Shown piece after piece: positions 9,001-59,985 of a stretch of DNA of 64,000 nucleotides (position 1 is its first letter; the number at the start of each line of letters is the position of its first letter). The translations under genes were made by a program, and so were the position numbers. A model generated the notes under the pieces. It had not been told where the DNA came from and ran no database searches. It worked only from the letters and a program-made list of their open reading frames with translations. Source of the stretch: Gammaproteobacteria bacterium (GTDB taxonomy: Bacteria > Pseudomonadota > Gammaproteobacteria > Eutrophobiales > Eutrophobiaceae); assembly GCA_965205955.1 (NCBI GenBank), contig OZ242192.1:1477118-1541117 (forward strand), in the 5' to 3' direction.

Positions 9001-12000
9001 CGGTACCGATCGAGAACGACGAGAGAGACGAGGCGAACGGCATGATAACCGCGACGGTGGAGACCGGCACAGGTTACACGGTAGCCTCGCCGCCAGGCAA
9101 CACAGCCAGTGTCGCGGTCGAGGATGACGACGACGAGCCGACGCTGGCGATTAACTCGCCGAGCGTGACCGAGGGCAACAGTGGCACGGCGACGCTGCGC
9201 TACGTGGTGACGCTGACCGGGATGACGGAGCGGGAAGTGACGGTGCGGTATGCGGAGGGCTCGGGCGGCACGGCGACTTCGGGCACCGACTACAACAGGA
9301 TTACCGGCGGCATGCTGACCTTTGCGTCGGGCACGACCACACAGAACATCGACGTAACGGTGAGGGGGGACACGACGGACGAGCCGAACGAGACGGTCAT
9401 CGTCACCCTGTCGAACCCGGACAACGCAACGATTATGACCGCCGACGGCACCGGCACGATTACCGACGACGACGACCCGGAAATCTCTATAGCTGCCGGG
9501 GCTGCGGTGACCGAGGGGACGGCGGCGACCTTCACGCTGACGGCGACCTCCGCTCCGGGGACAAACCTGACCGTGACGGTTACGGTGGACGACGGGAGCG
9601 GCAACTTCATTGCCGGTGTAGCGCCGACGACGGTAACGATTACCGGCACGACGGCCACGCTGAGGGTGCCGACCATGGGCGACTCTATTGACGAGGCCAA
9701 CGGCATGATAACGGCGACGGTGGAGACCGGCACCGGCTATACGGTAGACGGGACGAACAACAGCGCCAGTGTCGCCGTCAATGACGACGACGCTGCGCCG
9801 ACGCTGGCGATTGACTCCCCGAGTGTGGCAGAGGGCGACAGCGGCACGGCGACACTCAGCTACGAGGTGACGCTGACCGGGGCGACGGAGCGGGAAGTGA
9901 TGGTGCAGTATGCGGGCACAGGCGGCACGGCGACCTCGGGCACCGACTACACCGCGATTACTGCCGGCACGCTGACCTTTGCGCCGAGTGTGACCACACA
10001 GAACATCAACGTAACGGTGAGGGGGGACACGGTGGAGGAGATGAACGAGACGGTCTTCGTCACCCTGTCGAGCCCGGTCAACGCGACGATCGTCGGCAAT
10101 GGCAGAGGCACCGGCACGATTACCGATGACGATGGGGTGGTGGCACTGCCGGTAATCTCTATAAGGGCCGTCGGGTCTTTCGTGAACGAGGGAGTGCCGG
10201 CTATCTTCACGCTGACGGCGACCCCTGCTCCGATGGCGGATCTGACCGTGACCGTTACGGTGGATCCAGGCACGTACGCTGACGGTATCCCGCCGACGAC
10301 GGTAACGATTACCGGTGGCGAGACGACGGCCATGCTGACGGTACTGACCGAGAACGACATGAGACAGGAGCAGCCGTCGGGGATTATTTCTGGCCCGATA
10401 ACGGCGACGGTGGAGGACGGCGCAGGCTATACGGTAGGCTCGCCCAACACAGCCACTCTCTCTGTGATTGATGCCGACTCTCCGCCGTCTCTGAGCATTG
10501 ACTCGCCGAGCGTAGCCGAGGGCAACGCCGGGATGACGAGGTTGCGCTACACGGTGACACTGACTAACGAGTCGGAACTGATGGTGACGGTGGACTACGC
10601 GGATGAGACGGGCACTGCGGCCGGCGACACGGCGACCTCGGGCACCGACTACACCCCGCTCCCCTCTGGTACGTTGACCTTTGCGCCGCGCACGACCACA
10701 CAGAACATTGACGTAATGGTGATAGGGGACACGGATGTCGAGCCGGACGAGACGGTCATCGTCAGACTGTCGAATCCGGTGAACGCGAGGACTGGTTCCT
10801 CTTTAGACCGCACCGGCACCGGCACGATTACCGATGATGACCTGCCGGTCATCTCTATAGCCGCCGGGCCTTCCCCGGTGATCGAGGGGGCGCCGGCTAC
10901 CTTCAGGCTGACGGCGAACCCTGCTCCGGCGGCGAATCTGACCGTGACGGTTGCCGTGAGCGACGGGGCGGGCGACTTCATTGGCAGTCCGCCACCGCCG
11001 CCGACGGTGGTAATTCCCTCAGGAGGTTCGGTGACGCTGTCGGTGCCGACCAACGACGACACTGCCGACGAACCGAACGGCATGATCACGGCGACGGTGG
11101 GGAGCGGTACGGGCTACACGGTGGACGGGACGAACAACACAGCCAGTGTCACAGTCAATGATAACGACACGGCGGTGGTGCCGGTCATTTCTATAGCCGC
11201 CGGGACTTCCTCGGTGATCGAGGGGGCGCCGGCGACCTTCACGCTGAGGGCGAACGTTCCTCCGCCGGCGACTCTGACCGTGATGGTTACCGTTACCGCC
11301 TCGGGCGACTTCATTGGCAGTCCGTTGCCGACGACAGTGATGATTACCACGTCAGGTTTGGTGACGCTGACGGTACCGACCATGGACGACTCTATCAACG
11401 AACCGGATGGCATAATAACGGTGACGGTGACGGCCGGTACGGGCTACACGGTAGCCACAGGGGGAGGCAACACGGCCAGTGTCACGGTCCAGGATAACGA
11501 CGTGCCGGCCATCTCCATAGCCGCCGGGCCCCCGGTGACCGAGGGGGCGCTGGTTACCTTCACGCTGACGGCGAACCCTACTCCGGCGGCGGATCTGACC
11601 GTGACGGTTACCGTCACCGACTCGGGCGACTTCATTACCGGTGCGCCGCCGGCGACGGTAACGATTACCGGCAGTGCCACGACGGCTACGCTGGAGGTGC
11701 CGACCACCGACGACACTACCCCCGAGACGCTCGGAATGATAACGGCGATGGTAACGGCGGGCGACGGCTACACAGTCGGTACCCCGGCCATGGCCACGGT
11801 CGATGTACGGGATGACGATACAGGGATAGTTATCTCTATAGTCGCCGGGACTTCCCCGGTGCCCGAGGGGATGGCGGCGACCTTCACGCTGACGGCGGAC
11901 CCTGCTCCGTTGGCGAACCTGACCGTGACGGTTACCGTTACCGACTCGGGCGACTTCATTACCAGTGCGCCGATGCCGACGGTGGTAATTCCCCCGGCAG

Positions 12001-15000
12001 GTTCGGTGACGCTGACGGTGCCGACCACCGACGACACTACCCCCGAGCCGAACGGCGTGATAACGGCGACGGTGACGTCCGGCGCCGGCTACATGCCAGC
12101 CGGAGGGGGAGCCGACAGCGCCAGTGTCACGGTGAATAATGACGACCGCGAGGCACCGACAGAACCGGGTGTCTTCGTCTCCCAGACGGAACTCAGTATT
12201 GAAGAAGGTAGCGAGGCCATCTACACCGTGGTACTCGACACCGCGCCGACGGACGATGTCACGATTACCCCGATGGTCGCTCCTGCCTCGGATGTACTCA
12301 GCGAGACTTTCTCTTCGGGCGACGAAGTGCCGGCAACGGTATCCGAGGCGCTGACCTTCACCCCGGCCAACTGGAACGTGCCACAGCCCGTCACTGTAAC
12401 CGGCGTGGACAACAACAGAACAGGAGCCCTCTTCCTGCAGGTGAGAGTGCGCCATATGGCCTCGAGCTCGGACGGCGACTATGACAGTGTGGGCATCGCG
12501 AGCGTGAGAGTCGACGTGTTCGATGACGATCCTTTGCTCATCATCTCCCATACGGAACGCACGGTGGCTGAAGCTGGCGGCATGGCCGAATACACCGTAG
12601 TGATGGGCTTCAGGCTGAGCGTAGATTTACCTGTTAGCCTGGTGAGCGATGCCCCCACGGTGGCGACGGTATCGCCGCCGGATCTGACCTTCACCCCGTC
12701 CAACTGGGATACGCCGCGGACCGTGACCGTGACCGGCGTGAACGACCCCTTCGACAATCCCGATGACCGCACTGCGACCATCAGCCATACGCATATGGTT
12801 GACGGTCGCGACTTTGGATCGCCTTCTCTTACGGAGGATATTCGCAACTTTGTATCGAGATCTGTGGTCGTCACCGCGACCGATGATGAGACCGCCGGCG
12901 TCACCATCTCCCCAGCCCCAGGGATGCCCATGGTTTCTTTAGGGGACGAAGCGACCTACACTGTGGTGCTGGATACCCCTCCGACCGACGGGGTATTAAT
13001 AATCCTTAGGGAAGAATTCTTTCAAGACGGGTCGGCGATGGTGGTTGATGTATCGCCGTTTGATGAGAGGACTCTGATTCCTCTGCCTCTGAGGTTTACC
13101 CCGTCCGCTTGGAACGTGCCACAGACCGTGACCGTGTTTGGCCGTGAAGTCGGCACTGCGAGCCTCATGTATAGTGCCGGGAGTAGAGACGACAGCTATC
13201 ATGAGATAGACATTGCGCCTCTGGTCATCACCGTGGCTGATAACGGTCCCGTCGCCCGCGTCCGCGTTTCGCCGGCGATGGTTCAGGTGGGCGAGGATAG
13301 CGGCACGACGGAGTACACCGTAGTGCTGGACAACCGGCCGCCGACGGCCGATGTCACCATCACTCCGGCGAGTGGTGACACTGCGATAGCGACGGTATCG
13401 CCGACGGAGCTGACCTTCACCCCGGACAACTGGAACATAGCGCAGCCCGTCACCGTCACCGGTGTGGACGACCCCGACTATAACCCCCCCTTCGGCAACC
13501 GCGCTGTGGCCGTAAGCCATACGGCTGCGAGCTCGGACGTCAACTATAACGGAAGAAGCATAGATCCTGTGACCGTCACCGTAGTAGATGACGAAATACG
13601 GCCAGCAGGAGTCATCGTTACAGATATAATCGGCGGTTTGATCATCGTGGGCGAACTGGACGACTTCGACACCGAACTGGGCATGGGCCGCACCAACACC
13701 TACGCCCTGGTGCTCAACAGACAGCCGACGGACAATGTCACCGTCACTCCGAGGAGTGGCGACACTGCGATAGCGAGGGTGAGCGGGGCGCTGACCTTCA
13801 CCCCGGACAACTGGAACACAGCGCAGACCGTCACCGTGACCGGCGTGAATGACGACGTTGATAATAGCGGCGACACCCGCACTGTGACCATAACCCATAC
13901 GGCTGTGAGCATGGAGGACGCCTATGACGGGATAACCATAGATACTGTGACCGTCACCGTAGAAGATGACGACACCCCCGGCGCCATCGTCTCCCCGACG
14001 GAACTCAGTATTGAAGAAAATGGCGATGGCATCTACACCGTGGTACTCGGCACCGTGCCGACGGCCCCTGTCATGATTACCCCGATGGTCGCTCCTAACT
14101 CGGATGTACTCAGCGAGACTTTCTCTCCAGGCGACGAAGTGCCGGCAACGGTATCCGGGGTGGCACTGACCTTCACCACGACCAACTGGAACGTGCCACA
14201 GACCGTCACCGTAACCGGCGTGGACAACAACAGAACAGGAACCCTCTTCCTGCGGGTGAGAGTGCGCCATATGGCCGAGAGCTTGGACAGCGACTATAAC
14301 GGGGTGGGCATCGCGAGCGTGAGAGTCGACGTGTTTGATGACGATCCTTTGCTCATCATCTCCGAATCGGCACTCACGGTTGCAGAAAATGGCGGCATGG
14401 CCACATACACCGTAGTGATGGGCGTCAGGCTGAGCGTAGATTTACCTGTTAGCCTGGCGAGCGACACGACCTCGGTGGCGACGGTATCGTCGACGGGGCT
14501 GACCTTCACCCCGGACAACTGGGATACGCCGCAGACCGTGACCGTGACCGGCGTGAACGACCCCTTCGACAATCCCGATGACCGCACTGCGACCATCAGC
14601 CATACGCATATGGTTGATGGTCGCGACTTTGGATCGAGTTCGGAGGAGGAGGATATTCGCGAACTTGTATCGAGATCTGTGGTCGTCACCGCGATCGATG
14701 ATGAGACCGCCGGCGTCACCATCTCCCCAGATATGCACATGGTTTCTGTAAGGAGCAGAGCGACCTACACTGTGGTGCTGGACACCCCTCCGACCGACGG
14801 GGTATTAATAATCCTTAGGGAAGAATTCTTTCAAGACGGGGCGGCGATGGTGGTTGATGTATCGCCGTTTGATGCGAGGACTCTGATTCCTCTGCCTCTG
14901 AGGTTTACCCCGTCCACCTGGAACGTGCCACAGACCGTGACCGTGTTTGGCCGTGAAGCCGGCACTGCGAGCCTCATGTATAGGGCCAGGAGTAGAGACG

Positions 15001-15053
15001 ACAGCTATCATGATATAGACATTGCACCTCTGGTCATCACCGTGGTTGAGTAG
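15..15053 (+). CDS. Giant repeat adhesin-like protein, 5'-partial. More than 5,000 aa lie in the window and the ORF runs off the window start. About 40 alternating Calx-beta-type repeats, a VCBS-like segment, a PKD-like segment, Ig-like domains, and a C-terminal cadherin/Ig-like repeat block.
   Basis: A single uninterrupted frame. The Calx-beta signature recurs every ~100 aa (DYADAG...TATSGTDYE...LTF.PG.TTQ.I.V.V.GD..DE.DETV...LS...NA.I....GTGTI.DDD). A VCBS-like stretch is present (YGSFVLDATSGVWIYTLNN ... ITGANDAP). The composition is T/V/D/G/A-rich. Confidence 0.9.
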   Translation: MMEGTTATFTVTATSAPAADLTVTVTVDDGAGNFIAGVAPTTVTITASATEATLMVATMADSIDEANGTITATVTIGAGYTVDGTNNTASVTVNDDDAEPTLAISSPSVPEGNSGSVMLRYTVTLTGATEREVTVDYADAGTGTATSGTDYETITAGTLTFTPGDATTQDIDVTVTGDAIDEGDGETVIVTLSGAVNAMITTPDGTGTITDDDAEPTLTINSPSVAEGDAGETPTLTYTVTLNGATEQTVTVDYADAGAGGSGTATSGTDYDAITPDTLTFVPGTTTQTITVMVTGDTDEEGDETVIVTLSNPDNATIATADGTGTIRGDDAPVLPTISIAAGPSPVTEADNATFTLTADPAPGTELIVTVTVDDGSGNFIASPAPTMVTITASTTTATLMVSTDDDSVDEAEGMITATVTAGAGYTIALSPDNSATVTVADNDPAPTLAINSPTVLEGDSGSTAMLRYTVTLSGETEQEVTVAYADAAGTATPDTDYETLTAGTLTFTSGGATAQNIDVIVTGDAIDEEDETVVLRLSGAVNAEITTPDGTGTITDDDAAPTLAIDSLSVAEGTTGETPTLTYTVTLTGNTEQEVTVAYADAGATGGGTATSGTDYETIAGGTLTFAPGTTTQTITVTVTGDTEDEGDGETVIVRLSNPNPVGVIITTPDGTGTITDDDDPTLPAISIAAGPSPVTEGDDATFTLTVAPAPMTDLTVTVTVDDGAGDFIASPAPTMVTITASNTTVTLTVMTEDDTTDEAAGMITATVTIGAGYTVSSPSTARVTVQDNDIVITGTPTGAVTEDAPTETATDTLVVEGGFVEQDGTTDRARGLGAYGSFVLDATSGVWIYTLNNDPTTTQGAATNALAEGDVVTEVFTAVSAADPSVEQEVTITITGANDAPTADAGLMQTVTQGITVTLDGSGSSDPDTGDMIDAYAWTQSSTPTVTLDATIEMPTFTAPAVTSPTDLGFSLVVNDGDTDSAPDPVTITVNPASAAPVVSTVEISSTGPYAAGDDIEVTVTFSEMVNVTDTPQIALMVDATTRQATYDSGTGTTALVFLYTVVDGENDADGVSIPANSLAQVAGSTIQDTDGTDDATLTHPAVDADPAQTVDTTAPTVSEVELSSDGPYALDEDIEVTVTFSEAVTVSGAPEITLTVGANERQATFSSGSDTVALVFTYTVAATETDDNGVSIPEDTLAQASGSAIQDTAGNDAVLDHDAVDADPAHAVDTTAPAFDSATVDADVLVLTYSENLDESSAPDNGDYTIGVTPGTAPTVTGVTLSGTDVTLMLSTPVTSDQTVTVSYTVGSTPLQDLAGNDAIELSDATVTNNTPMVLPTISIAAGSSPVTEVDNATFTLTATPAPGTDLTVTVTVTETGTFLGSPVPTTVMITASTTTATLTVPIDDDSIDEAPGMITATVTAGTGYMVDGAGNTASVTVNDNDAAPALAIDSPPMVTEGDDGDTATLSYTVTLSGDTTQEVTVDYADAGLVGGGTATSGADYEPITGGTLTFAPGTTTQTIDVTVRGDAIDEPDEETIIVMLSNPDNATIATDTGTGTITDNDPEPTLAIDSPNMFEGDDGDTATLRYTVTLSGDTEREVTVGYADAGTGTAASGTDYEALTAGTLTFAPGGATTQNIDVTVMGDVDDEGDEETVVVRLSGAVNATITTPDGTGTITDDDDPPALAINAPSVDEGDSGSVTLSYTVTLTGTTAQTVMVDYADAGSGTATSGTDYETITGGTLTFTPGGATTQTIAVTVTGDTIDEEDETVILRLSGAVNAEITTPDGTGTIDDDDDPPMLAISSPTMNEGNSGRAMLRYVVTLTGNTEREVTVDYADTSGGTATSGTDYDPITAGTLTFAPGGAATQNIDLMVVGDTIDEEDETVILRLSGAVNATISTADGTGTITDDDDEPTLAINSLTVPEGDSGSVMLRYTVTLNGATARTVTVQYADAGTTGGGTATSGADYDAITAGTLTFTPGGAATQTIDVMVRGDTIDEEDQTVILRLSGATNATITTPDGTGTITDDDAEPGLAINSPSVGEGDSMPLRYTVRLIGATEKEVTVQYEDSRAGSATSGADYDALTAATLTFAPGTTTQNIDVTVTDDTMNELTETVLITLSNNPVNARITTGTGTGRITDDDVPVISIAAGPAVNEGTAATFTLTANPAPAADLTVMVTVDDGAGDFIDGAAPTMVTITAGNREATLDVRTDDDSTDEVDGMITVTVTAGAGYMVAGGGDSTDSVTVRDDDDPVISIAAGAPVTEGTPATFTVTASSAPMTNLTVTVTVDDGAGNFIASPAPTTVTILASAMMATLTVPTTDDTTDEANGMITATVTDGAGYTVDGANNTDSVAVNDDDDPPTLAINSPSVDEGDTGDMPTLTYTVTLTGETEQEVTVDYADTTSGTAASGTDYTAITASTLTFAPGMTTQPINVTVRGDTIDEPNETVIVMLSNPDNATITAGSGVGTGTITDDDDPVISIVAADPTVIEGASATFTVRATSAPAANLSVMVAVTDGAGTFITGMPPTTVTIPASAMMATLTVPTTDDNTDEAPGMITATVETGTGYRVAPPPGDTARVTVNDNDALPRLAIDSPSVGEGNTGTATLSYTVTLIGATARTVMVDYADAGGGTATSGTDYTAITAGTTLTFAPGTTTQPINVTVTGDTTDEPNETVFVMLSNPVNATITAGRGTGTITDDDDPEISIVAGAAVTEGTAATFTLTASSAPGTNLTVTVTVDDGAGNFIAGSAPTTVTITGGERTAMLMVPTMADSIDEANGMITATVEDGTGYTVAGGGANTASVAVNDNDPPPTLAIDSPSVAEGDDGDAPTLSYTVTLTGDTEQEVTVGYADADSGTATSGTDYEAVTAGTLTFAPGTTTQPIEVTVTGDATDVEDETVILTLSGAVNATITTADGTGTITDDDRVPVISIVPFGPETVIEGTPPTAVRFTLMADPAPMANLTVTVTVDPGTYADGIPPTTVTITGGETMAMLPVPIENDERDEANGMITATVETGTGYTVASPPGNTASVAVEDDDDEPTLAINSPSVTEGNSGTATLRYVVTLTGMTEREVTVRYAEGSGGTATSGTDYNRITGGMLTFASGTTTQNIDVTVRGDTTDEPNETVIVTLSNPDNATIMTADGTGTITDDDDPEISIAAGAAVTEGTAATFTLTATSAPGTNLTVTVTVDDGSGNFIAGVAPTTVTITGTTATLRVPTMGDSIDEANGMITATVETGTGYTVDGTNNSASVAVNDDDAAPTLAIDSPSVAEGDSGTATLSYEVTLTGATEREVMVQYAGTGGTATSGTDYTAITAGTLTFAPSVTTQNINVTVRGDTVEEMNETVFVTLSSPVNATIVGNGRGTGTITDDDGVVALPVISIRAVGSFVNEGVPAIFTLTATPAPMADLTVTVTVDPGTYADGIPPTTVTITGGETTAMLTVLTENDMRQEQPSGIISGPITATVEDGAGYTVGSPNTATLSVIDADSPPSLSIDSPSVAEGNAGMTRLRYTVTLTNESELMVTVDYADETGTAAGDTATSGTDYTPLPSGTLTFAPRTTTQNIDVMVIGDTDVEPDETVIVRLSNPVNARTGSSLDRTGTGTITDDDLPVISIAAGPSPVIEGAPATFRLTANPAPAANLTVTVAVSDGAGDFIGSPPPPPTVVIPSGGSVTLSVPTNDDTADEPNGMITATVGSGTGYTVDGTNNTASVTVNDNDTAVVPVISIAAGTSSVIEGAPATFTLRANVPPPATLTVMVTVTASGDFIGSPLPTTVMITTSGLVTLTVPTMDDSINEPDGIITVTVTAGTGYTVATGGGNTASVTVQDNDVPAISIAAGPPVTEGALVTFTLTANPTPAADLTVTVTVTDSGDFITGAPPATVTITGSATTATLEVPTTDDTTPETLGMITAMVTAGDGYTVGTPAMATVDVRDDDTGIVISIVAGTSPVPEGMAATFTLTADPAPLANLTVTVTVTDSGDFITSAPMPTVVIPPAGSVTLTVPTTDDTTPEPNGVITATVTSGAGYMPAGGGADSASVTVNNDDREAPTEPGVFVSQTELSIEEGSEAIYTVVLDTAPTDDVTITPMVAPASDVLSETFSSGDEVPATVSEALTFTPANWNVPQPVTVTGVDNNRTGALFLQVRVRHMASSSDGDYDSVGIASVRVDVFDDDPLLIISHTERTVAEAGGMAEYTVVMGFRLSVDLPVSLVSDAPTVATVSPPDLTFTPSNWDTPRTVTVTGVNDPFDNPDDRTATISHTHMVDGRDFGSPSLTEDIRNFVSRSVVVTATDDETAGVTISPAPGMPMVSLGDEATYTVVLDTPPTDGVLIILREEFFQDGSAMVVDVSPFDERTLIPLPLRFTPSAWNVPQTVTVFGREVGTASLMYSAGSRDDSYHEIDIAPLVITVADNGPVARVRVSPAMVQVGEDSGTTEYTVVLDNRPPTADVTITPASGDTAIATVSPTELTFTPDNWNIAQPVTVTGVDDPDYNPPFGNRAVAVSHTAASSDVNYNGRSIDPVTVTVVDDEIRPAGVIVTDIIGGLIIVGELDDFDTELGMGRTNTYALVLNRQPTDNVTVTPRSGDTAIARVSGALTFTPDNWNTAQTVTVTGVNDDVDNSGDTRTVTITHTAVSMEDAYDGITIDTVTVTVEDDDTPGAIVSPTELSIEENGDGIYTVVLGTVPTAPVMITPMVAPNSDVLSETFSPGDEVPATVSGVALTFTTTNWNVPQTVTVTGVDNNRTGTLFLRVRVRHMAESLDSDYNGVGIASVRVDVFDDDPLLIISESALTVAENGGMATYTVVMGVRLSVDLPVSLASDTTSVATVSSTGLTFTPDNWDTPQTVTVTGVNDPFDNPDDRTATISHTHMVDGRDFGSSSEEEDIRELVSRSVVVTAIDDETAGVTISPDMHMVSVRSRATYTVVLDTPPTDGVLIILREEFFQDGAAMVVDVSPFDARTLIPLPLRFTPSTWNVPQTVTVFGREAGTASLMYRARSRDDSYHDIDIAPLVITVVE
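12170..15053 (+). repeat. Large intragenic direct duplication. Copy A (~12170-13250) and copy A' (~13985-15053) are about 90% identical at nucleotide level, with a ~1.8 kb period. The gene terminates immediately after copy A'.
   Basis: Long identical nucleotide runs were compared by eye, e.g. ccgacggaactcagtattgaagaa...gtgagagtgcgccatatggcc...gatgacgatcctttgctcatcatctcc in both copies. The protein blocks TELSIEEG...LIISHTERT and ...REEFFQDG...LVITV are repeated. Confidence 0.8.
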
Positions 15054-29806: not shown

Positions 29807-30616
29807 TTACTTTGAATACTGGCTATTATCTGTTTTTTTATAAATATAAATTACATTCATTTTAAATCCGGTAAAATGTTTTTCAATTAGTTCAAGGTGT
29901 CCGGCTGATACAAAGTCATTATCGATAAAATCTTCCAATTCACGATAATCGAATCCCAGGTGAGGGTCATAGCCGGTGTGTTTCGATTCTCTAAAGGAGC
30001 TTATCTCTCGTTTTTTTAGCAGATGTGCCAAATACTTCGAAAAACTATGTCTTTCAAAGAAATCTCCATAAGGATTGGGTCTAAGTAAATAACGACCTAA
30101 TAATTTAATTAATCCAACTATATAAATTTCATTAGGTATTGTTAGAATAATAATTCCCCCGGCATTTAAATGATTATAAATATTACTAAATGCATTATTA
30201 AAATTTCCAACATGCTCCAGGGTTTCAAAGCAGGTAACCAAATCAAAAGTCTTTTTCGTATCATTTATGGTATTCATATCAAAGAATTTGAATTGAGCAT
30301 CTGGAATCATCCTTTTTCGGGCTAAATCCAATAATTCTTCCGAACAGTCATAGCCCACTACAGTCGAAAATCGGAATTGAATATTCTTGATTATCTGTTC
30401 GATAATGAATCCATTCGAACATCCGAAATCCGCCCACTTGATTGTTTTTGATGGGAGGTATTTTCGAAACATCCTGAGAATTGCACGGAACCTGTTCCGA
30501 TGCACCAACGAGGCCGGATACCTGCTGGTATAATTTTTTTCATGCAATGATAAGTCTTGACTCATTTTGCGGAATAGTTTGATAAATATAGTAATCAACA
30601 GCCGAATAACAGCCAA
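29807..30616 (-). CDS. Class I SAM-dependent methyltransferase, orphan, in an AT-rich islet.
   Basis: Motif I ADFGCSNGFII and post-I VTCFETLEHV are present. The gene is about 30% GC, against about 55% for the surrounding DNA. Confidence 0.7.
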   Translation of the reverse strand: MAVIRLLITIFIKLFRKMSQDLSLHEKNYTSRYPASLVHRNRFRAILRMFRKYLPSKTIKWADFGCSNGFIIEQIIKNIQFRFSTVVGYDCSEELLDLARKRMIPDAQFKFFDMNTINDTKKTFDLVTCFETLEHVGNFNNAFSNIYNHLNAGGIIILTIPNEIYIVGLIKLLGRYLLRPNPYGDFFERHSFSKYLAHLLKKREISSFRESKHTGYDPHLGFDYRELEDFIDNDFVSAGHLELIEKHFTGFKMNVIYIYKKTDNSQYSK

Positions 30617-32339: not shown

Positions 32340-32479
32340 GGGGGTAGATTCAGGTTCGGGACAAATTAAAGGCGCTAGTGGTACACTGGCTATAGTTGCT
32401 ATCGTCAAGATATTTTTGTAATTCTGTCAGCCAAAGCCGCTGATGTTGTATTTATAAATGTCAGTGCATTTATACGGAT

Positions 32480-32896
32480 ATGGTAGTAAAAAATTCTGAT
32501 ATGATCGTCAGTGAGTCAATTCGTGTAAGAGGGGTTGTACAAGGCGTGGGTTTTCGCCCCACTGTTTGGCGAATTGCCAATGATTGTGGCCTCATGGGCG
32601 ATGTCATAAACGATGCCGATGGCGTGCTCATTATGGCAAAGGGTCAGAGAAAATGCCTGGACGAATTTGTGAAACGCCTGGAAGATGAAGCGCCGCCATT
32701 AGCTCGTATTGATTTAATTGAACGGCAATCTGTCGATGTATTGCCTACACAGGATCAATTTCATATAAAACCCAGTAACGTGGGGGATCCGCGCACCGGT
32801 ATAGCCCCTGACTCGGCTATTTGCAGTCATTGCATCATCGTAAAATCATCTAATCGAAAATTCAGAGTTAATCATGCACCCAAAGTTAAGAATTAA
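32480..32896 (+). pseudogene. hypF: Truncated N-terminal remnant of the [NiFe]-hydrogenase maturation factor HypF: the acylphosphatase domain plus the start of the first zinc finger only.
   Basis: IRVRGVVQGVGFRPTVWRIA...PPLARID...IAPDSAICSHC is colinear with the E. coli HypF N-terminus (GKVQGVGFRPFVW...PPLARID...VPDAATCPAC). The ORF ends 20 aa later with no further Cys motifs. Intact HypF is about 750 aa. Confidence 0.7.
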
Positions 32897-33683
32897 ACCA
32901 AAGTTGCACCGCAAACCAAAGTGGTACCGCACACTTGCTCACAAGTTCGGCTACGACATTGTAAAGTTAGGAAAGCAGTTGTTGCTGGAATCTTACACCT
33001 TTCCCTTGGAATTTCATTTAAGAAATCTCTTTCCCATGCTCTCCGTTGATCTGGTGATTGATGTCGGCGCACACAAGGGCGAGTTTGCCCGGATGTTGCG
33101 ACACACGGGGTATCATGGCGAAATCATTTCATTTGAACCTGCCGAAAGCTCATTTGTCGAGCTGAGCCGGGAGACAAAAGACGATGTCAAATGGTCCGCG
33201 CACCGGTTGGCTTTGAGTGACCATGCGGGGGAAGCGGAACTTCACTTGTTAGGCAAGCCTGACAGCGATTTGAATTCGCTGCACTCGTTCAGTTCGTTTG
33301 GCGAGCATAAGTATCGGCACCGTAGTGGGTATCGTCGCCGTGTCGTCAGCACCGAAACGGTGTCTTTGGGCCGGCTGGATGAATTTCTCGCCCGGCATGT
33401 GCCGGATTTTGCCCGGCGCCGGGTCTTTCTCAAGATGGATACTCAGGGCCATAATCTTCGCGTATTTGCCGGTGCTGGCGACTACACCGGGTGTTTTTGC
33501 GGACTCGTGTCCGAAGTGTCGGTGATGCCGATATACAACGACATTCCCACCTACATGGAGAGCCTTGAGATCTACCGGCAGCACGGTTATGAAGTAACCG
33601 GGCTATACACGATTAGCCGAAACAGAAAGACCGGGCACATCGTTGAATTCGATTGTGTCATGGTGCCTAAGGTTGATGGGTGA
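32874..33683 (+). CDS. FkbM-family SAM-dependent methyltransferase.
   Basis: LVIDVGAHKGEFARML...SFEPAESSF...ALSDHAGEAELHL is typical of the FkbM family. It overlaps the 3' end of the hypF remnant ORF. Confidence 0.7.
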   Translation: MHPKLRIKPKLHRKPKWYRTLAHKFGYDIVKLGKQLLLESYTFPLEFHLRNLFPMLSVDLVIDVGAHKGEFARMLRHTGYHGEIISFEPAESSFVELSRETKDDVKWSAHRLALSDHAGEAELHLLGKPDSDLNSLHSFSSFGEHKYRHRSGYRRRVVSTETVSLGRLDEFLARHVPDFARRRVFLKMDTQGHNLRVFAGAGDYTGCFCGLVSEVSVMPIYNDIPTYMESLEIYRQHGYEVTGLYTISRNRKTGHIVEFDCVMVPKVDG

Positions 33684-33838
33684 GCGGGTTTCCCGCTCCA
33701 TTTACGCCTCGCGTGGGATCTTTTTGATTTGTTCAGGCCATAATAACTATAACTCATTGTAAATATTATGAAAAATCGAAGGAGATTGCTGTGGTTTCTC
33801 CTTGCTTGGCCGCAAGATGACGCCCAGCCCCCGCCGTA

Positions 33839-35556: not shown

Positions 35557-36384
35557 TCAGGAGAGTCGAAACAGGATAAAAGACAGGTCATCCGGTTTAT
35601 GCGGCTGTTCCGGGAACCTGTTGTACATGCGCAGTTTCGCCTTTTCTACAAGCCGGTAGGCACAATTGGCTAAATTTCCATGCCGGATTATCCCGATAAT
35701 TTCCTTTTTGAACAGGTTATCGAACAGACCGTCACTACCGAGCAGCAAGGTATCATACCGGGCCAGATAATAAGGCCGCCCTAATTGCAGATTCATATCT
35801 GTAAGCCCTACCGCATTGGAGATGAGATGGCGCTTGCTATGAAACATCGCCATGTTTTCGTCAATCAGTCCGCGTTCCAATGCATCGCCTATCGGAGAAT
35901 GTACCGCGGTGCGCAATTTCATTTTTCCACGCTGACCGGTTACTATAATTTCGGAATCGCCGGCATGATAAGTCTTTACTTTTTGCCCCTCCAGTTCCAC
36001 TACCGCAATAGTGGTTGCGGCATTATTGTACTCAGTCATTATTCTATCATGTGCAATTGAGATGCCTTCCATAATGCCGTTGATTACCAATTCATTATTT
36101 TCTATGCTGTTTCTGGTATTTCTCGCGATTTCATTCACCGTGATTGATGCGGCTTCTTTGCCATTCGTATGTCCGCCCAGTCCATCTGCAACAACCAGCA
36201 CGGCTTGCGTATCACTAATCGGGATAATCGCCGCGGCATCTTCATTATCGGTATTTTTTATCGGTGATTTTGCTGAATAGATAATGCAACAACCGTTGGC
36301 CAGAGTTTTTTCAATACATTCTCCAGAGTTATGCCGGGTCAATATGATGGGCTGGTTATTTTGAGCATGGGTAGCCGTATGCAT
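35557..36384 (-). CDS. PP2C-family Ser/Thr protein phosphatase.
   Basis: ADGLGGHTNGKEAASITV and DSEIIVTGQ...LGSDGLFD metal-binding motifs are present. Confidence 0.8.
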   Translation of the reverse strand: MHTATHAQNNQPIILTRHNSGECIEKTLANGCCIIYSAKSPIKNTDNEDAAAIIPISDTQAVLVVADGLGGHTNGKEAASITVNEIARNTRNSIENNELVINGIMEGISIAHDRIMTEYNNAATTIAVVELEGQKVKTYHAGDSEIIVTGQRGKMKLRTAVHSPIGDALERGLIDENMAMFHSKRHLISNAVGLTDMNLQLGRPYYLARYDTLLLGSDGLFDNLFKKEIIGIIRHGNLANCAYRLVEKAKLRMYNRFPEQPHKPDDLSFILFRLS

Positions 36385-43490: not shown

Positions 43491-43575
43491 GCCGATGTGG
43501 TGGAATTGGTAGACACGCTATCTTGAGGGGGTAGTGCCTTTTGGCGTGCCGGTTCGACTCCGGCCATCGGCACCA
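43491..43575 (+). tRNA. tRNA-Leu (anticodon GAG), 85 nt with CCA.
   Basis: GCCGATGTGGTGGAATTGGTAGACACGCTATCTTGAGGGGGTAGTGCC...GGTTCGACTCCGGCCATCGGCACCA. The anticodon loop is TTGAGGG, with a long variable arm. Confidence 0.9.
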
Positions 43576-43659: not shown

Positions 43660-46407
43660 ATGCCCCTCAGCTGGAATGAAATCCGCGATCGTGCGTTGGC
43701 GTTTTCCAATGATTGGAGCGGGGAGTCTTCCGAACGCGCCGAAGCGCAGACTTTCTGGAACGCCTTTTTTAACCTCTTCGGCGTCTCCCGCCGCCGGATC
43801 GCCTCCTTTGAAAAGCGCGTCAAGGAAGTTGACGGCAAGGGCGGCTACATCGATTTGCTGTGGAAAGGCGTGCTGTTGATCGAGCACAAGTCACGCGGTG
43901 AAAATCTCGACCGCGCTTACCAGCAGGCGCTGGATTATTTCCCCGGATTGGAAGACCGCGACCTGCCGCGTTTTGTGCTGGTGTCCGATTTCGCCCGTTT
44001 TCGGCTATACGACCTGGACGAAGGCGAGCAGCACGAGTTTGCCGTGCAAGACCTGCACAAGCACGTCAACCGTTTTGCCTTCATCGCCGGTTATCAAACC
44101 CACAAAATAAAAGAGCAGGACCCGGTCAACATCAAAGCCGCCGAGTTGATGGGCAAACTGCACGATCGGCTACGGGCAGTCGGCTACACCGGCCACGATC
44201 TGGAGGTGTATCTGGTGCGTCTGTTGTTTTGCATGTTTGCCGAAGACACCGGAATTTTTGAGCGGCAGCAGTTTCAGGAGTACATTGAAATCCGCACCGC
44301 GCAGGACGGCACCGACCTCGGGGCGCAACTCGATACCTTGTTTTATGTATTGAACGCACCGGAACCCAACCGCCTCGACAACCGCGACGAACAACTCAAC
44401 GGATTCCCGTTTGTCAACGGCAAACTGTTCGAGGAGCGCCTGCGCCCAGCGGCATTTGACTGCGCCATGCGCGAATCGCTGCTGCATTGCTGCTCGCTCG
44501 ACTGGAGCCGTATCTCCCCGGCGATTTTCGGCTCGCTGTTTCAGTCCATCATGGACAAAGACGCACGGCGCAACCTCGGCGCGCACTACACCTCGGAGGA
44601 GAACATCCTCAAACTCATCAATCCGCTTTTCATGGACGACCTGCGGGCCGAGTTTAAAAAAGTCAAAAACAACAAAAACAGGCTGTTCGAGTTCCACAAA
44701 AAACTCCGCACCCTGACGTTCCTTGACCCCGCCTGCGGCTGCGGCAATTTCCTCGTCATCGCCTACCGTGAATTGCGCCTGCTGGAGCTGGAAATTCTGC
44801 GCGCGACGTACCGGCAGGGCAGGCAGATGTTACAAATCCAAACCATGATCCAACTAGACGTGGACCAGTTCTACGGCATAGAAATCGAAGAGTTCCCGGC
44901 GCAAATCGCACAGGTGGCAATGTGGCTGGTTGACCATCAGATGAACACGCGGGTGTCGCAGGAGTTCGGTATGTACTTTGCGCGCATTCCGCTGACATCG
45001 AGCGCGAATATCGTTCACGGCAATGCCTTGCAGATGGACTGGCGGGATTTGGTTGTGCCGGAGCGGTTGAATTACATTATGGGGAATCCGCCGTTTATTG
45101 GTAAAAACTTTCAGAACAGCGAACAAAAGCAGGACATGAAGCGCATTTATGGGGAATCCAGATACAGCGCGGGATTGGATTATGTGACCGCCTGGTATAA
45201 ACAGGCTTTGCGCTATATGAAAGACAACGATGAGATTACATGCGCGTTTGTTTCCACCAACTCTATCACGCAAGGCGAGCAGGTCTATATGTTTTGGCCG
45301 GCTTTGCTGGGAGACGGCATCCAGATTCATTTTGCGCACCGGACTTTTCAATGGGCGAATGAAGCCAGAGGCAAGGCCGCCGTGCATTGCGTGATCATCG
45401 GCTTTGGCTTGAAACCGGCGAAGAAAAAGCGATTGTTTGAATACGAGGATATTCAAAGCAAGCCGCATGAAATTCGCGCCAACAATATCAACCCGTATCT
45501 TGTGGATGCTGGCAATATCGTCATTCCTGCGGCGACCAGCGCTTTGTGTGATTGCCCGAAAATGATCAACGGAAACAAGCCGACTGACGGCGGGAATCTG
45601 TTGCTGAATGAAAAGGAAAAGAATGAGTTATTAGCATTGCAACCCGAAGCAGCCGAATGGGTTAAGCCGTATTCAATGGGCAACGAGTTTATTAACGGCA
45701 TTCCCCGTTTTTGTTTGTGGTTGAAACATTGTCCCCCGGAAAAATTACGCAAGATGCCGCATGTCATAAAGCGCATAGAAGCGGTAAAAGAGATGCGCAG
45801 TAAAAGCGCGGATAAGAACACGCGGAAATTTGCCGAAAAGCCGACGGTTTTTATGGCTGATAGACAATCTGAAAGTGCGTATCTGGCGATTCCCAGGATA
45901 TCCTCTGAAAGAAGAATTTATATTCCGATAGGCTTTTTGCAACCCGACCATATTGCAGGCGAAACATTGCACACGGTGCCGAATGCAACTCTCTATCATT
46001 TTGGCGTGGTCACATCGCTTATGCACATGGCATGGATGCGGGTCGTGGGCGGCAGGCTCAAGAGCGACTATCGTTATCTAGCGAACATCGTCTACAACAA
46101 CTACCCTTGGCCTAAAACCCCAACCGAAAAACAAACCGCCGACATCGAAACCAAAGCCCAGGCAGTCCTTGACGCCCGTGCGCAATTCCCCGACTCCACC
46201 CTCGCCGATCTCTACGACCCGTTGACCATGCCGCCGCCGCTCCTCAAAGCCCATCAGGCATTGGACAAAGCGGTAGATCGCACTTACCGCAAAACCCCGT
46301 TCAACAACGAAGCCGAGCGGGTTGCCTTCCTGTTCGATCTCTACCAACAATACACCGCCCCGCTCCTGCCGAAGAAAAAAACACAGCGGCGGAAGAGGGC
46401 GATCTAA
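43660..46407 (+). CDS. MmeI-family Type IIL restriction-modification enzyme, with fused PD-(D/E)xK endonuclease, helical, gamma-class N6-adenine methyltransferase and target-recognition domains.
   Basis: At 915 aa it matches the family size. The N-terminus reads MPLSWNEIRDRALAFSNDW...AEAQTFWNAFFNLFGV...IDLLWKGVLLIEHKSRG (D...E.K nuclease core). Motif I is LDPACGCGNFLV and motif IV YIMGNPPFIGKN. Confidence 0.8.
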   Translation: MPLSWNEIRDRALAFSNDWSGESSERAEAQTFWNAFFNLFGVSRRRIASFEKRVKEVDGKGGYIDLLWKGVLLIEHKSRGENLDRAYQQALDYFPGLEDRDLPRFVLVSDFARFRLYDLDEGEQHEFAVQDLHKHVNRFAFIAGYQTHKIKEQDPVNIKAAELMGKLHDRLRAVGYTGHDLEVYLVRLLFCMFAEDTGIFERQQFQEYIEIRTAQDGTDLGAQLDTLFYVLNAPEPNRLDNRDEQLNGFPFVNGKLFEERLRPAAFDCAMRESLLHCCSLDWSRISPAIFGSLFQSIMDKDARRNLGAHYTSEENILKLINPLFMDDLRAEFKKVKNNKNRLFEFHKKLRTLTFLDPACGCGNFLVIAYRELRLLELEILRATYRQGRQMLQIQTMIQLDVDQFYGIEIEEFPAQIAQVAMWLVDHQMNTRVSQEFGMYFARIPLTSSANIVHGNALQMDWRDLVVPERLNYIMGNPPFIGKNFQNSEQKQDMKRIYGESRYSAGLDYVTAWYKQALRYMKDNDEITCAFVSTNSITQGEQVYMFWPALLGDGIQIHFAHRTFQWANEARGKAAVHCVIIGFGLKPAKKKRLFEYEDIQSKPHEIRANNINPYLVDAGNIVIPAATSALCDCPKMINGNKPTDGGNLLLNEKEKNELLALQPEAAEWVKPYSMGNEFINGIPRFCLWLKHCPPEKLRKMPHVIKRIEAVKEMRSKSADKNTRKFAEKPTVFMADRQSESAYLAIPRISSERRIYIPIGFLQPDHIAGETLHTVPNATLYHFGVVTSLMHMAWMRVVGGRLKSDYRYLANIVYNNYPWPKTPTEKQTADIETKAQAVLDARAQFPDSTLADLYDPLTMPPPLLKAHQALDKAVDRTYRKTPFNNEAERVAFLFDLYQQYTAPLLPKKKTQRRKRAI

Positions 46408-46755: not shown

Positions 46756-47532
46756 TTAATCCTTATGTTTATCATTATTTTTCGATTGACGTTTGATTTT
46801 ATTGAGATCGACCAGCTCATTTCTTATTTGGTTAATTTTTATTTTATGAGGCTCATGTTTGGAGAGACAGCATTTTTTATATTTTTTACCACTTCCGCAT
46901 AAGCATAGATCATTCCTTCCGGTTTTGCCGGTTTTGCTTATTATTTCCGATTTGCAAAATTCAAGTCTCTTCTCACGATCTTCTATCTCCTCTTCAAGAG
47001 CTTCTTTTGTGGAATGTGGAGATTCTCCACATGGTGGAATTTTTCTATATTTGTAATAGTAAGACTGCCACACAAAGTATGGATAAACATCATGATGAAT
47101 GAAATCACTCAGTGAAGCTCTGGTAGATAAGCTTTTTGTCGATATGATGTTTAGGCAGCATCTGTGATCTTGAGGGAATAAATGCAAGTCAATAACTTTT
47201 TTTGTTAACTTATTTGCTAGACTCTCAATCTTCTCTCCAACTTCGTATACTTTAGGATATCTATTTTTTTGATTTAGGTCAATTTCAATTAGGTATTCGC
47301 CTGTTATACATCCATTTTGGTCATCTCTACATTGCTCTATCTCCCAATAGGTAAAATTATGCATTTTTCTCTGCTTGTAGCAACAAGCAGGAATATCCAA
47401 TATGCCGCGTATTTTGTTATCTTCTGAGCAATAGTAGAGACGAGGAAACCATTTTTTTACTTTTTCAAATTCTACCTGTGAATGTTTAATCAATTGCGAA
47501 TGGTTTTTTTGCATGCGTTGTGGGAATAACAA
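46756..47532 (-). CDS. SEC-C-motif (CxC..GSGxKYKxCC) metal-binding protein of unknown function, last gene of the AT-rich CBASS-like operon.
   Basis: The C-terminus reads ...DLCLCGSGKKYKKCCL. The N-terminal ~200 aa are Cys-rich with no domain I recognise. The gene is ~30% GC. Its 5' end overlaps the 3' end of the upstream SMODS gene by 29-47 nt, depending on which Met is used. Confidence 0.6.
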   Translation of the reverse strand: MLFPQRMQKNHSQLIKHSQVEFEKVKKWFPRLYYCSEDNKIRGILDIPACCYKQRKMHNFTYWEIEQCRDDQNGCITGEYLIEIDLNQKNRYPKVYEVGEKIESLANKLTKKVIDLHLFPQDHRCCLNIISTKSLSTRASLSDFIHHDVYPYFVWQSYYYKYRKIPPCGESPHSTKEALEEEIEDREKRLEFCKSEIISKTGKTGRNDLCLCGSGKKYKKCCLSKHEPHKIKINQIRNELVDLNKIKRQSKNNDKHKD

Positions 47533-48478
47533 CAGCTGGAGCTACGCCAATACTACTGGAGGTATTTGACGATTTTTTTGTCAATTTCCCAAAATCATCA
47601 CCAAACAATTTACGCCACTTCTTGATACTTTCATCGTGGTCTTTCTCCTCAAAAGCCTCATCAATTCTTTTATTATATATACTGAACTTGTCTCTAAAGT
47701 TATCATATTTTTTCTGATTCCAGTGTCTATTGAAATCTTCTTCAGACATGACAGGGTTTTCAATGATTGGCATGGTTATATGCATTTGGAGAAAGTCATT
47801 CAATCTATTAGAAAGAGTCTTTAATGTTGTTGGTACATCTGAAAAGTCTCTAGAGTTTCCATCTCCATCTTTGACTTCATTCCCCAACAAGGTTGTCAGT
47901 AATATAGATTTTACTGAGAAATTGTCCTTATGATCGCGCAAGAACTTCAGTAGCCTAGTTGTCTTTCTGAAATTGTTGTTTCTTACAATCTGATTTTTGT
48001 TTATCAGCCAGGTCTTATATCCATCACCGTCAGTCTTTTCATATTTTTCTTCTGTTCTGTTGCATATGTAGTTTGTTCCGTTGTGCTCTACACAAGGAAC
48101 TATGTCCAAATCAAAATCACCAGCGTAATCGATAGTTACACACCGTGTGCCTATTTCAATTTTGTCTTTGTAGTTGTCATTGTTCTTGAACACATCATAG
48201 ACTGTCTTCACATAGTCCGTTTCGAATTTGTTCGGATCAAAATTATTATCTCGAATCAAGGTTAATATATCTGCATCAAATTGATCGTTAGCTTGTACTG
48301 GCTTGATTATGGTCTTGTGGGCATATGATCCCTGCTCGCTGTATTTTCTATAGTTTGCAAGCTTTTCTTTGAGAATATCTGTGATGGTTTTTACACGTTT
48401 CTTTAGTGCTTCCAATCTCGTTGGATTCAGATTGACATGCTTATTCAGAAAATCGTCAAAATCTAGTAGGTGCTTCAT
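47486..48478 (-). CDS. SMODS-domain cGAS/DncV-like nucleotidyltransferase (CD-NTase), the cyclic-oligonucleotide synthase of a CBASS-like system.
   Basis: GS...h[DE]h[DE]h is matched by EQGSYAHKTIIKPVQANDQFDADILTLI, and the third acidic residue lies in YAGDFDLDIVPCVEH. The protein is 330 aa. A GGAGG ribosome-binding site lies 11 nt after the patatin stop. Confidence 0.7.
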   Translation of the reverse strand: MKHLLDFDDFLNKHVNLNPTRLEALKKRVKTITDILKEKLANYRKYSEQGSYAHKTIIKPVQANDQFDADILTLIRDNNFDPNKFETDYVKTVYDVFKNNDNYKDKIEIGTRCVTIDYAGDFDLDIVPCVEHNGTNYICNRTEEKYEKTDGDGYKTWLINKNQIVRNNNFRKTTRLLKFLRDHKDNFSVKSILLTTLLGNEVKDGDGNSRDFSDVPTTLKTLSNRLNDFLQMHITMPIIENPVMSEEDFNRHWNQKKYDNFRDKFSIYNKRIDEAFEEKDHDESIKKWRKLFGDDFGKLTKKSSNTSSSIGVAPAVVIPTTHAKKPFAID

Positions 48479-48489
48479 TTTTTTTCCTC

Positions 48490-49443
48490 CTATTGCTTCC
48501 GTCCGTTTAGAAAATCTGAAATGCCGGTGTTGTCTTTTGTGAACATTTCTTTAGCTCTCTCCACTAAGATGGGGATGTTTTGATAATTATCAAGTGGATA
48601 TTTATCGATAGGGGGGTTGATCCTGAAAATCCCATCTGGATCAATCAGTTGCAAGACATTTTGAGGAAACTTTGTTTGGCATGACATCATAAAATCGACC
48701 AATTGGGTATGTTTCCACCCCGTCAAAAAACCCCACCCCCATCTTTGAGGCTTTTTGTAATTGTGCTGAGCCTGCCCAGTTCCTAAAGATAAAATTTTGA
48801 TGTTATCTCGTTGTTCTGAGAAATTTCTAATGGCATCAGTATAGCCAACCAAAGAGGGATTATTTGCCCAGATGCCCCCATCACAAATAAGAGTGCCGTT
48901 TATATCTACCGGATCAAAATAAATTGGTGCTGAGCACGAGGCCAAAACTGCTTTGTATAAAGGTACTTCTCTATCACGCACATAATCGCCTTTTCGCTGA
49001 ACCTTTTGATACGATGATTTAAAGACATAGACTTCTCCAAGAGAGACGTTTGTTGCATTCAATATGAGAGGTTTTTCTATTTCTCCTAACTTCCTCTTGC
49101 CTAGTTTTTCCTGAAGAAAGCTTTCCAGAAAGGAGGAATCGTATTTGGAGCTTAAATGAATGCCTGCAAGCTTTTTCTTCCTAAATATTTTTGGGGCATT
49201 TTCGTCGTAATCCTTTACTAGCTGAGTTAAATCATACTTTGTAATGATAGCTGCAGCTATAATACTGCCGGTACTAGTTCCTACGATGAGATCGAAGGTT
49301 TTATATATATCTATATTGAGCTTGGTTTCCATAAGCTCTAGAATCTTTGCAGCGAAGATGCCTCGTACTCCACCACCATCAATGCTCAATACTCGAAATG
49401 GTCTGCTATTCATTAAATTTTCCTCTATTTCTCTGTAAACCAA
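48490..49443 (-). CDS. Patatin-like phospholipase (CapV-like CBASS effector).
   Basis: Oxyanion motif LSIDGGGVRG, nucleophile motif VGTSTGS (GxSxG) and catalytic Asp motif ICDGGIWANNP are present. Confidence 0.85.
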   Translation of the reverse strand: MVYREIEENLMNSRPFRVLSIDGGGVRGIFAAKILELMETKLNIDIYKTFDLIVGTSTGSIIAAAIITKYDLTQLVKDYDENAPKIFRKKKLAGIHLSSKYDSSFLESFLQEKLGKRKLGEIEKPLILNATNVSLGEVYVFKSSYQKVQRKGDYVRDREVPLYKAVLASCSAPIYFDPVDINGTLICDGGIWANNPSLVGYTDAIRNFSEQRDNIKILSLGTGQAQHNYKKPQRWGWGFLTGWKHTQLVDFMMSCQTKFPQNVLQLIDPDGIFRINPPIDKYPLDNYQNIPILVERAKEMFTKDNTGISDFLNGRKQ

Positions 49444-59046: not shown

Positions 59047-59985
59047 CTAGCAACACCTGGAAAGAGCATATTCTTTGTGCCAGGCTAAGGCGGAATCGTG
59101 GGGGGCTAAATTAGAATCACGGGAGTACTGAATCAAAGATCCATCATAATCCCCAAGAGAAGCATTTTCATTGATGGCTAAAATTTGCTTCGGCACCACC
59201 ACACGATACTTTTCATTAATCCAGAACATCCCTCTGTCAAACGACCAATGATGTTTGCGACACAATGCCATGCCGTTTCTTATGTCATCGGCACCGGCAA
59301 GGCGTTTCGGAACAATGTGCGCAGCCTCGGTTTCATAAACGCCGGTCAAGTCAACCAAAGAACCGGCACATATACAGCACTGATGGTTGTATGCCCGCAG
59401 AACATGGTGGCGAAATGCAGCAGAGCGCCCCGCACGTACTGAGTGAACTAAATTTATTGCCTCTTCGTCATAAAGGGAAAAATCATTTTGAGGGGTACCA
59501 TCAACAGCAGAAAACCCCTCTGAAAATTTGTCCGATCTCAATACTGCTTGATCAGAAAATGCAGCAGTGTAGCCAAACTCAAAATTAATCAAACAGGAAG
59601 GGTCGATACGAGAAATTATTCTGCTTCTGGAAGGTGGAGCACCGAGAAGAAAACCGCTTCGGAACATTTTTAAAAGCAATTCTTTATTGCTGATACGTTT
59701 TCTAACAGTTGTTCCCGGCGTGGGTTTGGAAATAGACTGCAAACAGGGGGGAACATTTCTGATCGGTAAGTAGGAGATACGATACTGAACAGCGCGTTTA
59801 TCAACATTTCCCCCCAGAACAGAATAGCCGCCAAAGCCTGGAGAGCACGGGGCAACACCGGTTAAATTCCTGTAGTCTGATTCAAATTCGGTCTGTTTTT
59901 TGGGAGGAACCTGCACGTCGTATTTCAGGGCAACATCGGGGTTGGATAAGTACCCCATAGCCTCGCATAGTTCTTTTGGTGTCAT
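59047..59985 (-). CDS. HNH-family endonuclease, the putative restriction endonuclease of a restriction-modification module.
   Basis: C-terminal HNH core ...YNHQCCICAGS...AAHIVPKRLAGADDIRNGMALCRKHHWSFDRGMF. The ATG at 59985 lies 1 nt from the upstream methyltransferase stop (59987). The longer ORF to 60111 would overlap the methyltransferase by 125 nt. Confidence 0.7.
   Translation of the reverse strand: MTPKELCEAMGYLSNPDVALKYDVQVPPKKQTEFESDYRNLTGVAPCSPGFGGYSVLGGNVDKRAVQYRISYLPIRNVPPCLQSISKPTPGTTVRKRISNKELLLKMFRSGFLLGAPPSRSRIISRIDPSCLINFEFGYTAAFSDQAVLRSDKFSEGFSAVDGTPQNDFSLYDEEAINLVHSVRAGRSAAFRHHVLRAYNHQCCICAGSLVDLTGVYETEAAHIVPKRLAGADDIRNGMALCRKHHWSFDRGMFWINEKYRVVVPKQILAINENASLGDYDGSLIQYSRDSNLAPHDSALAWHKEYALSRCC

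Follow-up and report, generated by a model that had tools for sequence, protein, structure and literature searches.

The hypF remnant

Two overlapping ORFs on the forward strand lie between aceA and UPF0114/dapE in the 64-kb window, i.e., the whole stretch of DNA that was analyzed. The first ORF, hypF' (32480–32896), encodes 138 aa and is a 5′ remnant (pseudogene) of the carbamoyltransferase gene hypF, as judged from its match to TIGR00143 and from indels among four genomes. The second ORF (32874–33683) is a complete gene for a 269-aa SAM methyltransferase of the FkbM family.

The hypF' product matches the NCBIfam model of HypF (TIGR00143) only at model positions 1–117 of 741, with a score of 97.2 bits against a cutoff of 466.1. 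Residues 14–96 (32519–32767) constitute an acylphosphatase-like domain that matches Pfam Acylphosphatase (PF00708) with 72.5 bits and is also delineated by the HypF alignment and by PDB entries 1gxu and 4g9i. A sequence search of the PDB placed the full-length HypFs 4g9i and 3vth and the N-domain of E. coli HypF (1gxt/1gxu) ahead of ordinary acylphosphatases. The phosphate-binding loop VQGVGFRP, which contains R26, and the residue N44 are intact in the window copy, and the PPLARID linker is present and colinear with HypF. The first CxxC of HypF zinc finger 1 (C115–C118; 32822–32833) was located by alignment with 29 HypF N-termini, a set made up of 28 full-length HypFs and the closest relative. 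Up to and including this CxxC, the window copy keeps 22 of 22 alignment columns that are at least 90% conserved in HypFs, and the CxxC is the last fully conserved HypF feature in it. The closest hypF, that of L002, is 62% identical (tblastn). Thus Pfam, TIGR00143, PDB, and the alignment all bear out the preliminary description, which had read the ORF as the N-terminus of HypF on the basis of the acylphosphatase domain, PPLARID, and the first CxxC.

Where does the homology to HypF end? HypF contains two zinc-finger motifs, each of the form CxxC-x18-CxxC. In hypF', the first CxxC is followed by IIVKSSNRKFR (32834–32866), a degraded stub of zinc finger 1 that was delimited by tblastn (to nt 32863) and by multiple alignment. 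A conserved Glu is gone from this stub via a 2-codon gap, and its SNRKF corresponds to SNRRF of HypF; the degraded SSNRKFR still aligns with the P/S-S-N-R-R-F/Y segment of HypF. Taken together, tblastn and the alignment place the end of homology at ~nt 32863–32866, between the first and second CxxC of zinc finger 1. The earlier claim of a truncation within zinc finger 1 therefore stands, but the claim that HypF homology is lost immediately after the first CxxC does not, as it runs on to this point.

Everything beyond the stub is missing. In the alignment, hypF' lacks the NCT.CGPR motif and all that follows, and the first CxxC (C115–C118) supplies its only zinc-finger cysteines. The YrdC-like and Kae1-like (HypF_C) domains are absent from the ORF, which ends at residue 138. 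In agreement with the earlier claim that the rest of HypF is gone, tblastn with both halves of the closest hypF revealed no second HypF remnant within the 64 kb. Likewise, Pfam scans of the sizeable ORFs of the window revealed no hyp or hydrogenase domains, as the preliminary description had stated for hyp and [NiFe]-hydrogenase genes. The zinc-finger stub appears more degraded than the acylphosphatase domain, a difference that could hint at past constraint on the domain.

The fkbM gene and the junction

The gene next to hypF' had been called an FkbM methyltransferase gene, and profile searches agree: its product scores 59.3 bits against PF05050 (cutoff 22.7) and 69.4 bits against TIGR01444 (cutoff 37.7). 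Homologues align full length with the window protein, and the homology starts at the N-terminal Met. The closest FkbM relatives are 240–265 aa long and 50–56% identical; those with 56% and 50% identity are encoded by stand-alone genes that adjoin GT2 or LptF/G genes, not hypF. The window protein (32874–33683) also carries two insertions, YTFPLEF (7 residues) and RHRS (4 residues), that none of the 15 aligned homologues has.

The gap between the end of HypF homology and the fkbM ATG (32874) is ~10 nt. The start of fkbM overlaps the end of the hypF' ORF by 23 nt, with the hypF' stop at 32894–32896, and an alternative fkbM start, TTG, is found at 32904. Beside the junction, a repeat search identified an in-frame 18-nt tandem duplication (32895–32930; KPKLHR|KPKWYR; 89% identity) that extends the N-terminus of FkbM. 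This duplication is an insertion relative to all aligned FkbM homologues and is consistent with slippage-prone, illegitimate joining at the junction. An exact 13-nt direct repeat, TCCGCGCACCGGT, is present at 32788–32800 in hypF' and at 33195–33207 in fkbM. By a rough estimate, chance alone would produce ~0.02 such pairs in 1.8 kb, and the repeat could be a coincidence or a recombination substrate.

A promoter scan at the locus returned nothing above shuffled expectation. A terminator-like hairpin with a T-run lies downstream of fkbM on the same strand (33701–33726), as found by a consensus scan only, in which the count of such hairpins was not above shuffled expectation. No strong SD precedes fkbM, but many genuine genes of this genome also have weak SD signals. 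Transcription of fkbM would probably start from signals that lie either before or inside the old 5′ part of hypF, because ~10 nt leaves no room for a promoter of its own.

Relatives of the HypF N-terminal domain

The preliminary description had pointed to a distinct family of acylphosphatase-Zn proteins of the same length as the alternative to a relic. A word-indexed search of 5.8 billion proteins returned high identity only to a protein of the same species (P0001), and the next match was 62% identical. Outside the species, no homologue with the length or the tail of hypF' was present among these 5.8 billion proteins. In a phmmer search of 1.84 billion cluster representatives, the best non-self match was 55% identical, and many proteins of 740–945 aa matched at their N-terminus.

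Further evidence comes from 80 loci of named genomes that carry the HypF N-terminal domain and were fetched by conserved motifs. The HypF frame is at least 650 aa long in 64 of these loci, leaves the contig in 9, and meets scattered stops at 201–610 aa in the other 7. Short homologues on long contigs end at scattered positions (79–238 aa), typically in out-of-frame zinc-finger sequence, and further short homologues end by running off short contigs.

Three short homologues on long contigs were inspected (L002, L003, and L091), and each is a frameshifted, IS-interrupted, or split hypF. In L002 (8001–9940), hypF is divided between two ORFs with the C-terminal half still downstream; it adjoins hypC, and an IS200-like Y1 transposase gene is nearby. 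In L091 (6001–8426), from a generally fragmented assembly, hypF is likewise in two ORFs and its remainder is still downstream. Both are metagenome-assembled genomes, and their split hypFs are frameshift pseudogenes or long-read errors. L003 (8001–8705) encodes a 128-aa HypF N-terminal stub whose end is close to the first Cys residues of the zinc finger. This stub lies directly beside a Transposase_mut fragment, in surroundings rich in IS elements, and is an independent, true truncation. A distinct short acylphosphatase-Zn family was rejected, as same-length homologues occur only in the same species and the short ones are scattered frameshift products. In other words, relatives of the domain are mostly full-length and the short ones are broken hypF genes, which upholds the earlier reading of the ORF as a truncated hypF relic.

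The ORF could also be a functional stand-alone acylphosphatase, an expressed ~15-kDa enzyme that hydrolyzes acyl or carbamoyl phosphate. The window copy keeps R26, N44, and all conserved columns of the domain, and the N-domain of E. coli HypF folds alone (1gxt/1gxu). Against this, homologues with the same length and tail are missing from the protein collection outside the species, and the ORF stays far below every stand-alone acylphosphatase equivalog cutoff. The best score was 46.9 bits for a model whose cutoff is 100, and all 25 models listed were below cutoff (cutoffs 86–131). The genomes of the same species that are considered below also bear on this question.

The aceA/UPF0114 site in related genomes

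The two ORFs are contained in a segment that runs from the aceA stop to the UPF0114 stop (32340–33838) and that was defined as lineage-specific by synteny with L006 and L007. The closest relative, L006, has an AceA that is 85% identical, a UPF0114 that is 77% identical, and a DapE that is 73% identical. In L006, aceA and UPF0114 are convergent and ~275 nt apart. In the more distant relative L007 (11658–12762), the aceA/UPF0114 gap is occupied by a GT2 glycosyltransferase gene and a gene for a 133-aa small membrane protein. At this site, neither tblastn nor blastn detected hypF or fkbM sequence in either relative. The host is without close sequenced relatives: after the nearest DapE at 73%, identities plateau near 63% among matches labelled, e.g., 'Gammaproteobacteria bacterium'.

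The parsimonious reading of these gene orders is that the hypF'-fkbM segment would be a lineage-specific insertion into a variable spot. An insertion is favored because the closest relative has neither hypF' nor fkbM at the site and the other relative carries other genes instead. Only two outgroups bear on whether the segment was inserted here or cleanly lost from the relative, and the intergenic DNA is too diverged from that of the closest relative to place the exact boundaries of the insertion. A repeat search revealed neither IS-like terminal inverted repeats nor a target-site duplication at the segment, and no tRNA gene adjoins it. In this poorly sampled gammaproteobacterial lineage, genes for envelope modification may have landed repeatedly in the aceA/UPF0114 gap.

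The stub is most like gammaproteobacterial HypFs, being 62% identical to that of L002 and 50–57% identical to those of Sedimenticolaceae and Chromatiaceae. GC3 is 0.41 in hypF', 0.34–0.41 in the L002 hypF, 0.60 in fkbM, and ~0.47–0.76 in host genes. Although within gene-to-gene scatter, and hence suggestive but not decisive, these values hint that the stub may be foreign and may have an origin other than that of fkbM.

The preliminary description had proposed instead a footprint of hydrogenase-cluster loss or rearrangement. In such a scenario, the interval between aceA and dapE in this lineage would formerly have housed a hyp or [NiFe]-hydrogenase cluster that was then deleted or replaced, with the first ~129 codons of hypF left behind. 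Two observations are in line with such a history. First, the stub is closest to gammaproteobacterial HypFs and the host also appears gammaproteobacterial, judged from its named DapE matches. Second, the gap between aceA and UPF0114 is variable and accepts insertions. However, the ~275 nt that separate the two genes in L006 hold no hyp remnant, and no further hyp remnant exists in the 64 kb of the window. In none of the 80 hypF loci does fkbM, aceA, or dapE lie within 10 kb of hypF. The GC3 of the stub is at or below the host range. The footprint model also needs the gain and then the loss of a whole cluster at one spot. The synteny comparison thus does not support a loss of a hydrogenase cluster at aceA-dapE, and this history is considered unlikely.

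Other features of the window

On the opposite side of aceA, a class-I SAM methyltransferase gene (Methyltransf_23; 29807–30616, reverse strand) has 34% GC and a GC3 of 0.33; it probably represents another methyltransferase gene of foreign origin that was inserted beside aceA. A CBASS-like anti-phage operon on the reverse strand (46756–49443) encodes a SEC-C-motif protein, an SMODS/DncV-like cyclase, and a patatin phospholipase. Its GC content is 34–39%, compared to 53% for the window, and it adjoins an MmeI-type restriction-modification gene (43660–46407) and a tRNA-Leu gene (43491–43575). Together, these elements look like a defence island at a tRNA. Genes for an HNH endonuclease and then two DNA methyltransferases (N6_N4_Mtase, MT-A70) are located at 59047–61449 on the reverse strand and may form a restriction-modification or phage-derived module. 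The forward strand at 15–15053 contains a giant ORF of 5012 aa with 13 or more Calx-beta repeats, one SWM repeat, and 63% GC, well above the window mean. This ORF probably encodes a large adhesin.

Probable decay of the stub in same-species genomes

Three further genomes of the same species were found by exact-sequence look-up and compared with the window over the 16 kb common to all four. Pairwise divergence over these 16 kb is 0.76–1.06%. The layout aceA - hypF' - fkbM - UPF0114 - dapE and the junction itself are identical in the four independent assemblies, and the truncation is older than the common ancestor of the four genomes. The junction could in principle be the product of an assembly chimera or a sequencing artefact, and the assemblies appear to be long-read, judged from contig names. 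As the identical junction recurs in four independent assemblies that are ~1% diverged, it is not an assembly artefact, and a false junction can be given next to no credence.

Does the stub evolve like a gene or like non-coding DNA? The 13 flanking coding genes (13,337 bp, with 203 homopolymer runs of at least 4) contain no indel among the four genomes. Intergenic DNA (2,218 bp) contains 7 indels and the hypF' stub (417 bp) contains 2. The indel rate of the stub differs from that of coding DNA (Fisher p=9e-4 per bp and p=2e-3 per homopolymer run) and is indistinguishable from that of intergenic DNA (Fisher p=0.64). Both stub indels fall in homopolymers, so that an assembly error is possible in these apparently long-read assemblies. 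Homopolymer error is disfavored because the 203 runs in neighboring genes show no indel, though random errors should strike there too. In other words, hypF' collects indels like non-coding DNA and is an ordinary gene relic that is decaying. The features expected of a pseudogene are all present, namely truncation, disabling polymorphisms, a non-coding-like indel rate, and absence from the syntenic site in relatives.

The two indels damage the ORF in different ways. In L005, an additional T within the VQGVGFRP loop causes a frameshift at codon ~25, and the gene is not called there. In L001, the loss of 2 nt at 32842 puts the tail into another frame, which yields a 123-aa product that stops at ~32853. 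The sole amino-acid polymorphisms in the stub, G18E in L001 and P72S in L005, both occur at columns conserved in at least 90% of HypFs, and G18E lies in the same catalytic loop as the L005 frameshift. The pN/pS of the stub is 0.20, a value that comes from only five substitutions (2 nonsynonymous and 3 synonymous) and compares with a range of 0.02–0.43 for its neighbors. The fkbM gene has no indels and a pN/pS of 0.25 among the four genomes. Elsewhere in the shared region, a PP2C phosphatase gene (35557–36384, reverse strand) shows 6 nonsynonymous changes and 1 synonymous change among the four genomes (pN/pS 1.8), unlike its neighbors.

These polymorphisms bear on the idea of a working acylphosphatase. 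The acylphosphatase frame is open in three of the four genomes, which counts in favor of such an enzyme. The L005 frameshift and the L001 G18E substitution, however, both hit the catalytic loop, and the length of the tail varies between strains. The earlier suggestion that an acylphosphatase-only fragment might still be expressed finds no support: the stub has an indel in two of the four genomes, and in one of these the catalytic loop is destroyed. A functional stand-alone enzyme is accordingly regarded as very unlikely.

The stub could serve fkbM instead of acting as an enzyme. In this explanation, it would be a translated leader, an upstream ORF whose translation and termination are coupled to initiation of fkbM at the ATG (32874) or the TTG (32904). 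The 23-nt overlap of hypF' with the fkbM start, together with the lack of a separate promoter or a strong SD before fkbM, fits a leader of this kind. Conversely, the stub stops early in L001 and is frameshifted in L005, yet both strains keep an intact fkbM under constraint. Initiation of fkbM therefore cannot depend on coupling to a full-length ORF upstream, and SD strength is uninformative in this genome. The leader explanation is judged highly improbable. Considered jointly, there is only a slight chance that the stub still works as a protein in some strains or did so until recently, either as a free carbamoyl- or acyl-phosphate phosphatase or as a translated leader that sets fkbM expression. 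If this were true, the intact catalytic residues seen alongside a degraded zinc-finger stub would reflect real constraint.

A model for the origin of the locus

How did a hypF fragment come to abut a methyltransferase gene? The explanation judged probable is that a non-functional 5′ remnant of hypF and a complete fkbM gene were illegitimately joined and sit in a lineage-specific insertion, in which the stub is decaying and fkbM is maintained. The insertion, ~1.4 kb between aceA and UPF0114/dapE, would carry both hypF' and fkbM. Illegitimate recombination or a deletion would have joined codon ~129 of hypF to a point ~10 nt ahead of the fkbM start codon, with the loss of the rest of the zinc fingers as well as of the YrdC-like and Kae1-like domains, which serve carbamoyl-adenylation and transfer to HypE. 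A gammaproteobacterial-type gene is the presumed source of hypF. As for the order of events, an already truncated piece may have been co-transferred with fkbM, or a larger insertion may have been trimmed later. The truncation is probably not ancient because the window copy keeps every conserved residue of the domain.

After the join, the stub would have lacked selective maintenance and decayed by slippage indels and by changes at invariant residues, and fkbM would be the maintained cargo. Some observations run against this explanation: the window copy has an open frame and all 22 conserved columns, and its pN/pS of 0.20 is not raised, albeit from counts too low to carry weight.

The appropriate annotation of the ORF is a hypF pseudogene fragment, not 'acylphosphatase' or 'HypF', and the ORF is no evidence that the organism matures hydrogenases. 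Beyond annotation the finding is of little importance, being a new instance of a gene remnant of a well-known kind. It is a small-scale case in which the capture of an accessory methyltransferase gene left a gene stub at the recombination junction, and it illustrates that an indel comparison in a few near-identical genomes can tell a relic from a live short gene.

Comparison with known systems

HypF needs all four of its domains (PMC6022934). The acylphosphatase domain and the zinc fingers act in the release of carbamate from carbamoyl phosphate, the YrdC-like domain makes carbamoyl-adenylate, and the Kae1-like domain passes the carbamoyl group to HypE via an internal channel (PMC6022934). The hypF' product cannot carry out the HypF reaction because it ends after the first CxxC and is without the YrdC-like and Kae1-like domains. 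It shares with HypF (TIGR00143; 4g9i, 3vth) the N-terminal acylphosphatase domain, PPLARID, and the first CxxC, in colinear order, but ~610 residues of HypF are missing from it, namely the remaining parts of the two zinc fingers plus the YrdC-like and Kae1-like domains. A HypF gene would be expected in association with hypCDE or [NiFe]-hydrogenase genes, whereas none lies near the stub among the ORFs of the 64-kb window.

The abutment of an fkbM gene on a hypF stub was seen here only, and FkbM relatives are not found beside hypF. A fused or operonic carbamoyltransferase-methyltransferase system was rejected, as the carbamoyltransferase domains are absent and FkbM relatives never neighbor hypF.

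Stand-alone AcyP (PF00708; PRK144xx) shares its fold and its catalytic Arg and Asn with the stub. By score, the stub is nevertheless far nearer to HypF (97.2 bits) than to any AcyP equivalog (46.9 bits at most). AcyP is also a single domain of ~90 aa, in contrast to the 138 aa of the stub with its zinc-finger remnant. E. coli HypF-N, a 91-residue domain (1gxt/1gxu) that folds alone, is the same domain and is matched over residues 12–91. HypF-N is a laboratory construct, whereas the stub is a natural truncation, has a junk tail, and carries disabling changes in sister strains. The broken hypFs of L003, L002, and L091 resemble the stub in being N-terminal ORFs of ~125–225 aa on long contigs, but they differ from it in their break points and in their causes, which are IS insertion and frameshifts.
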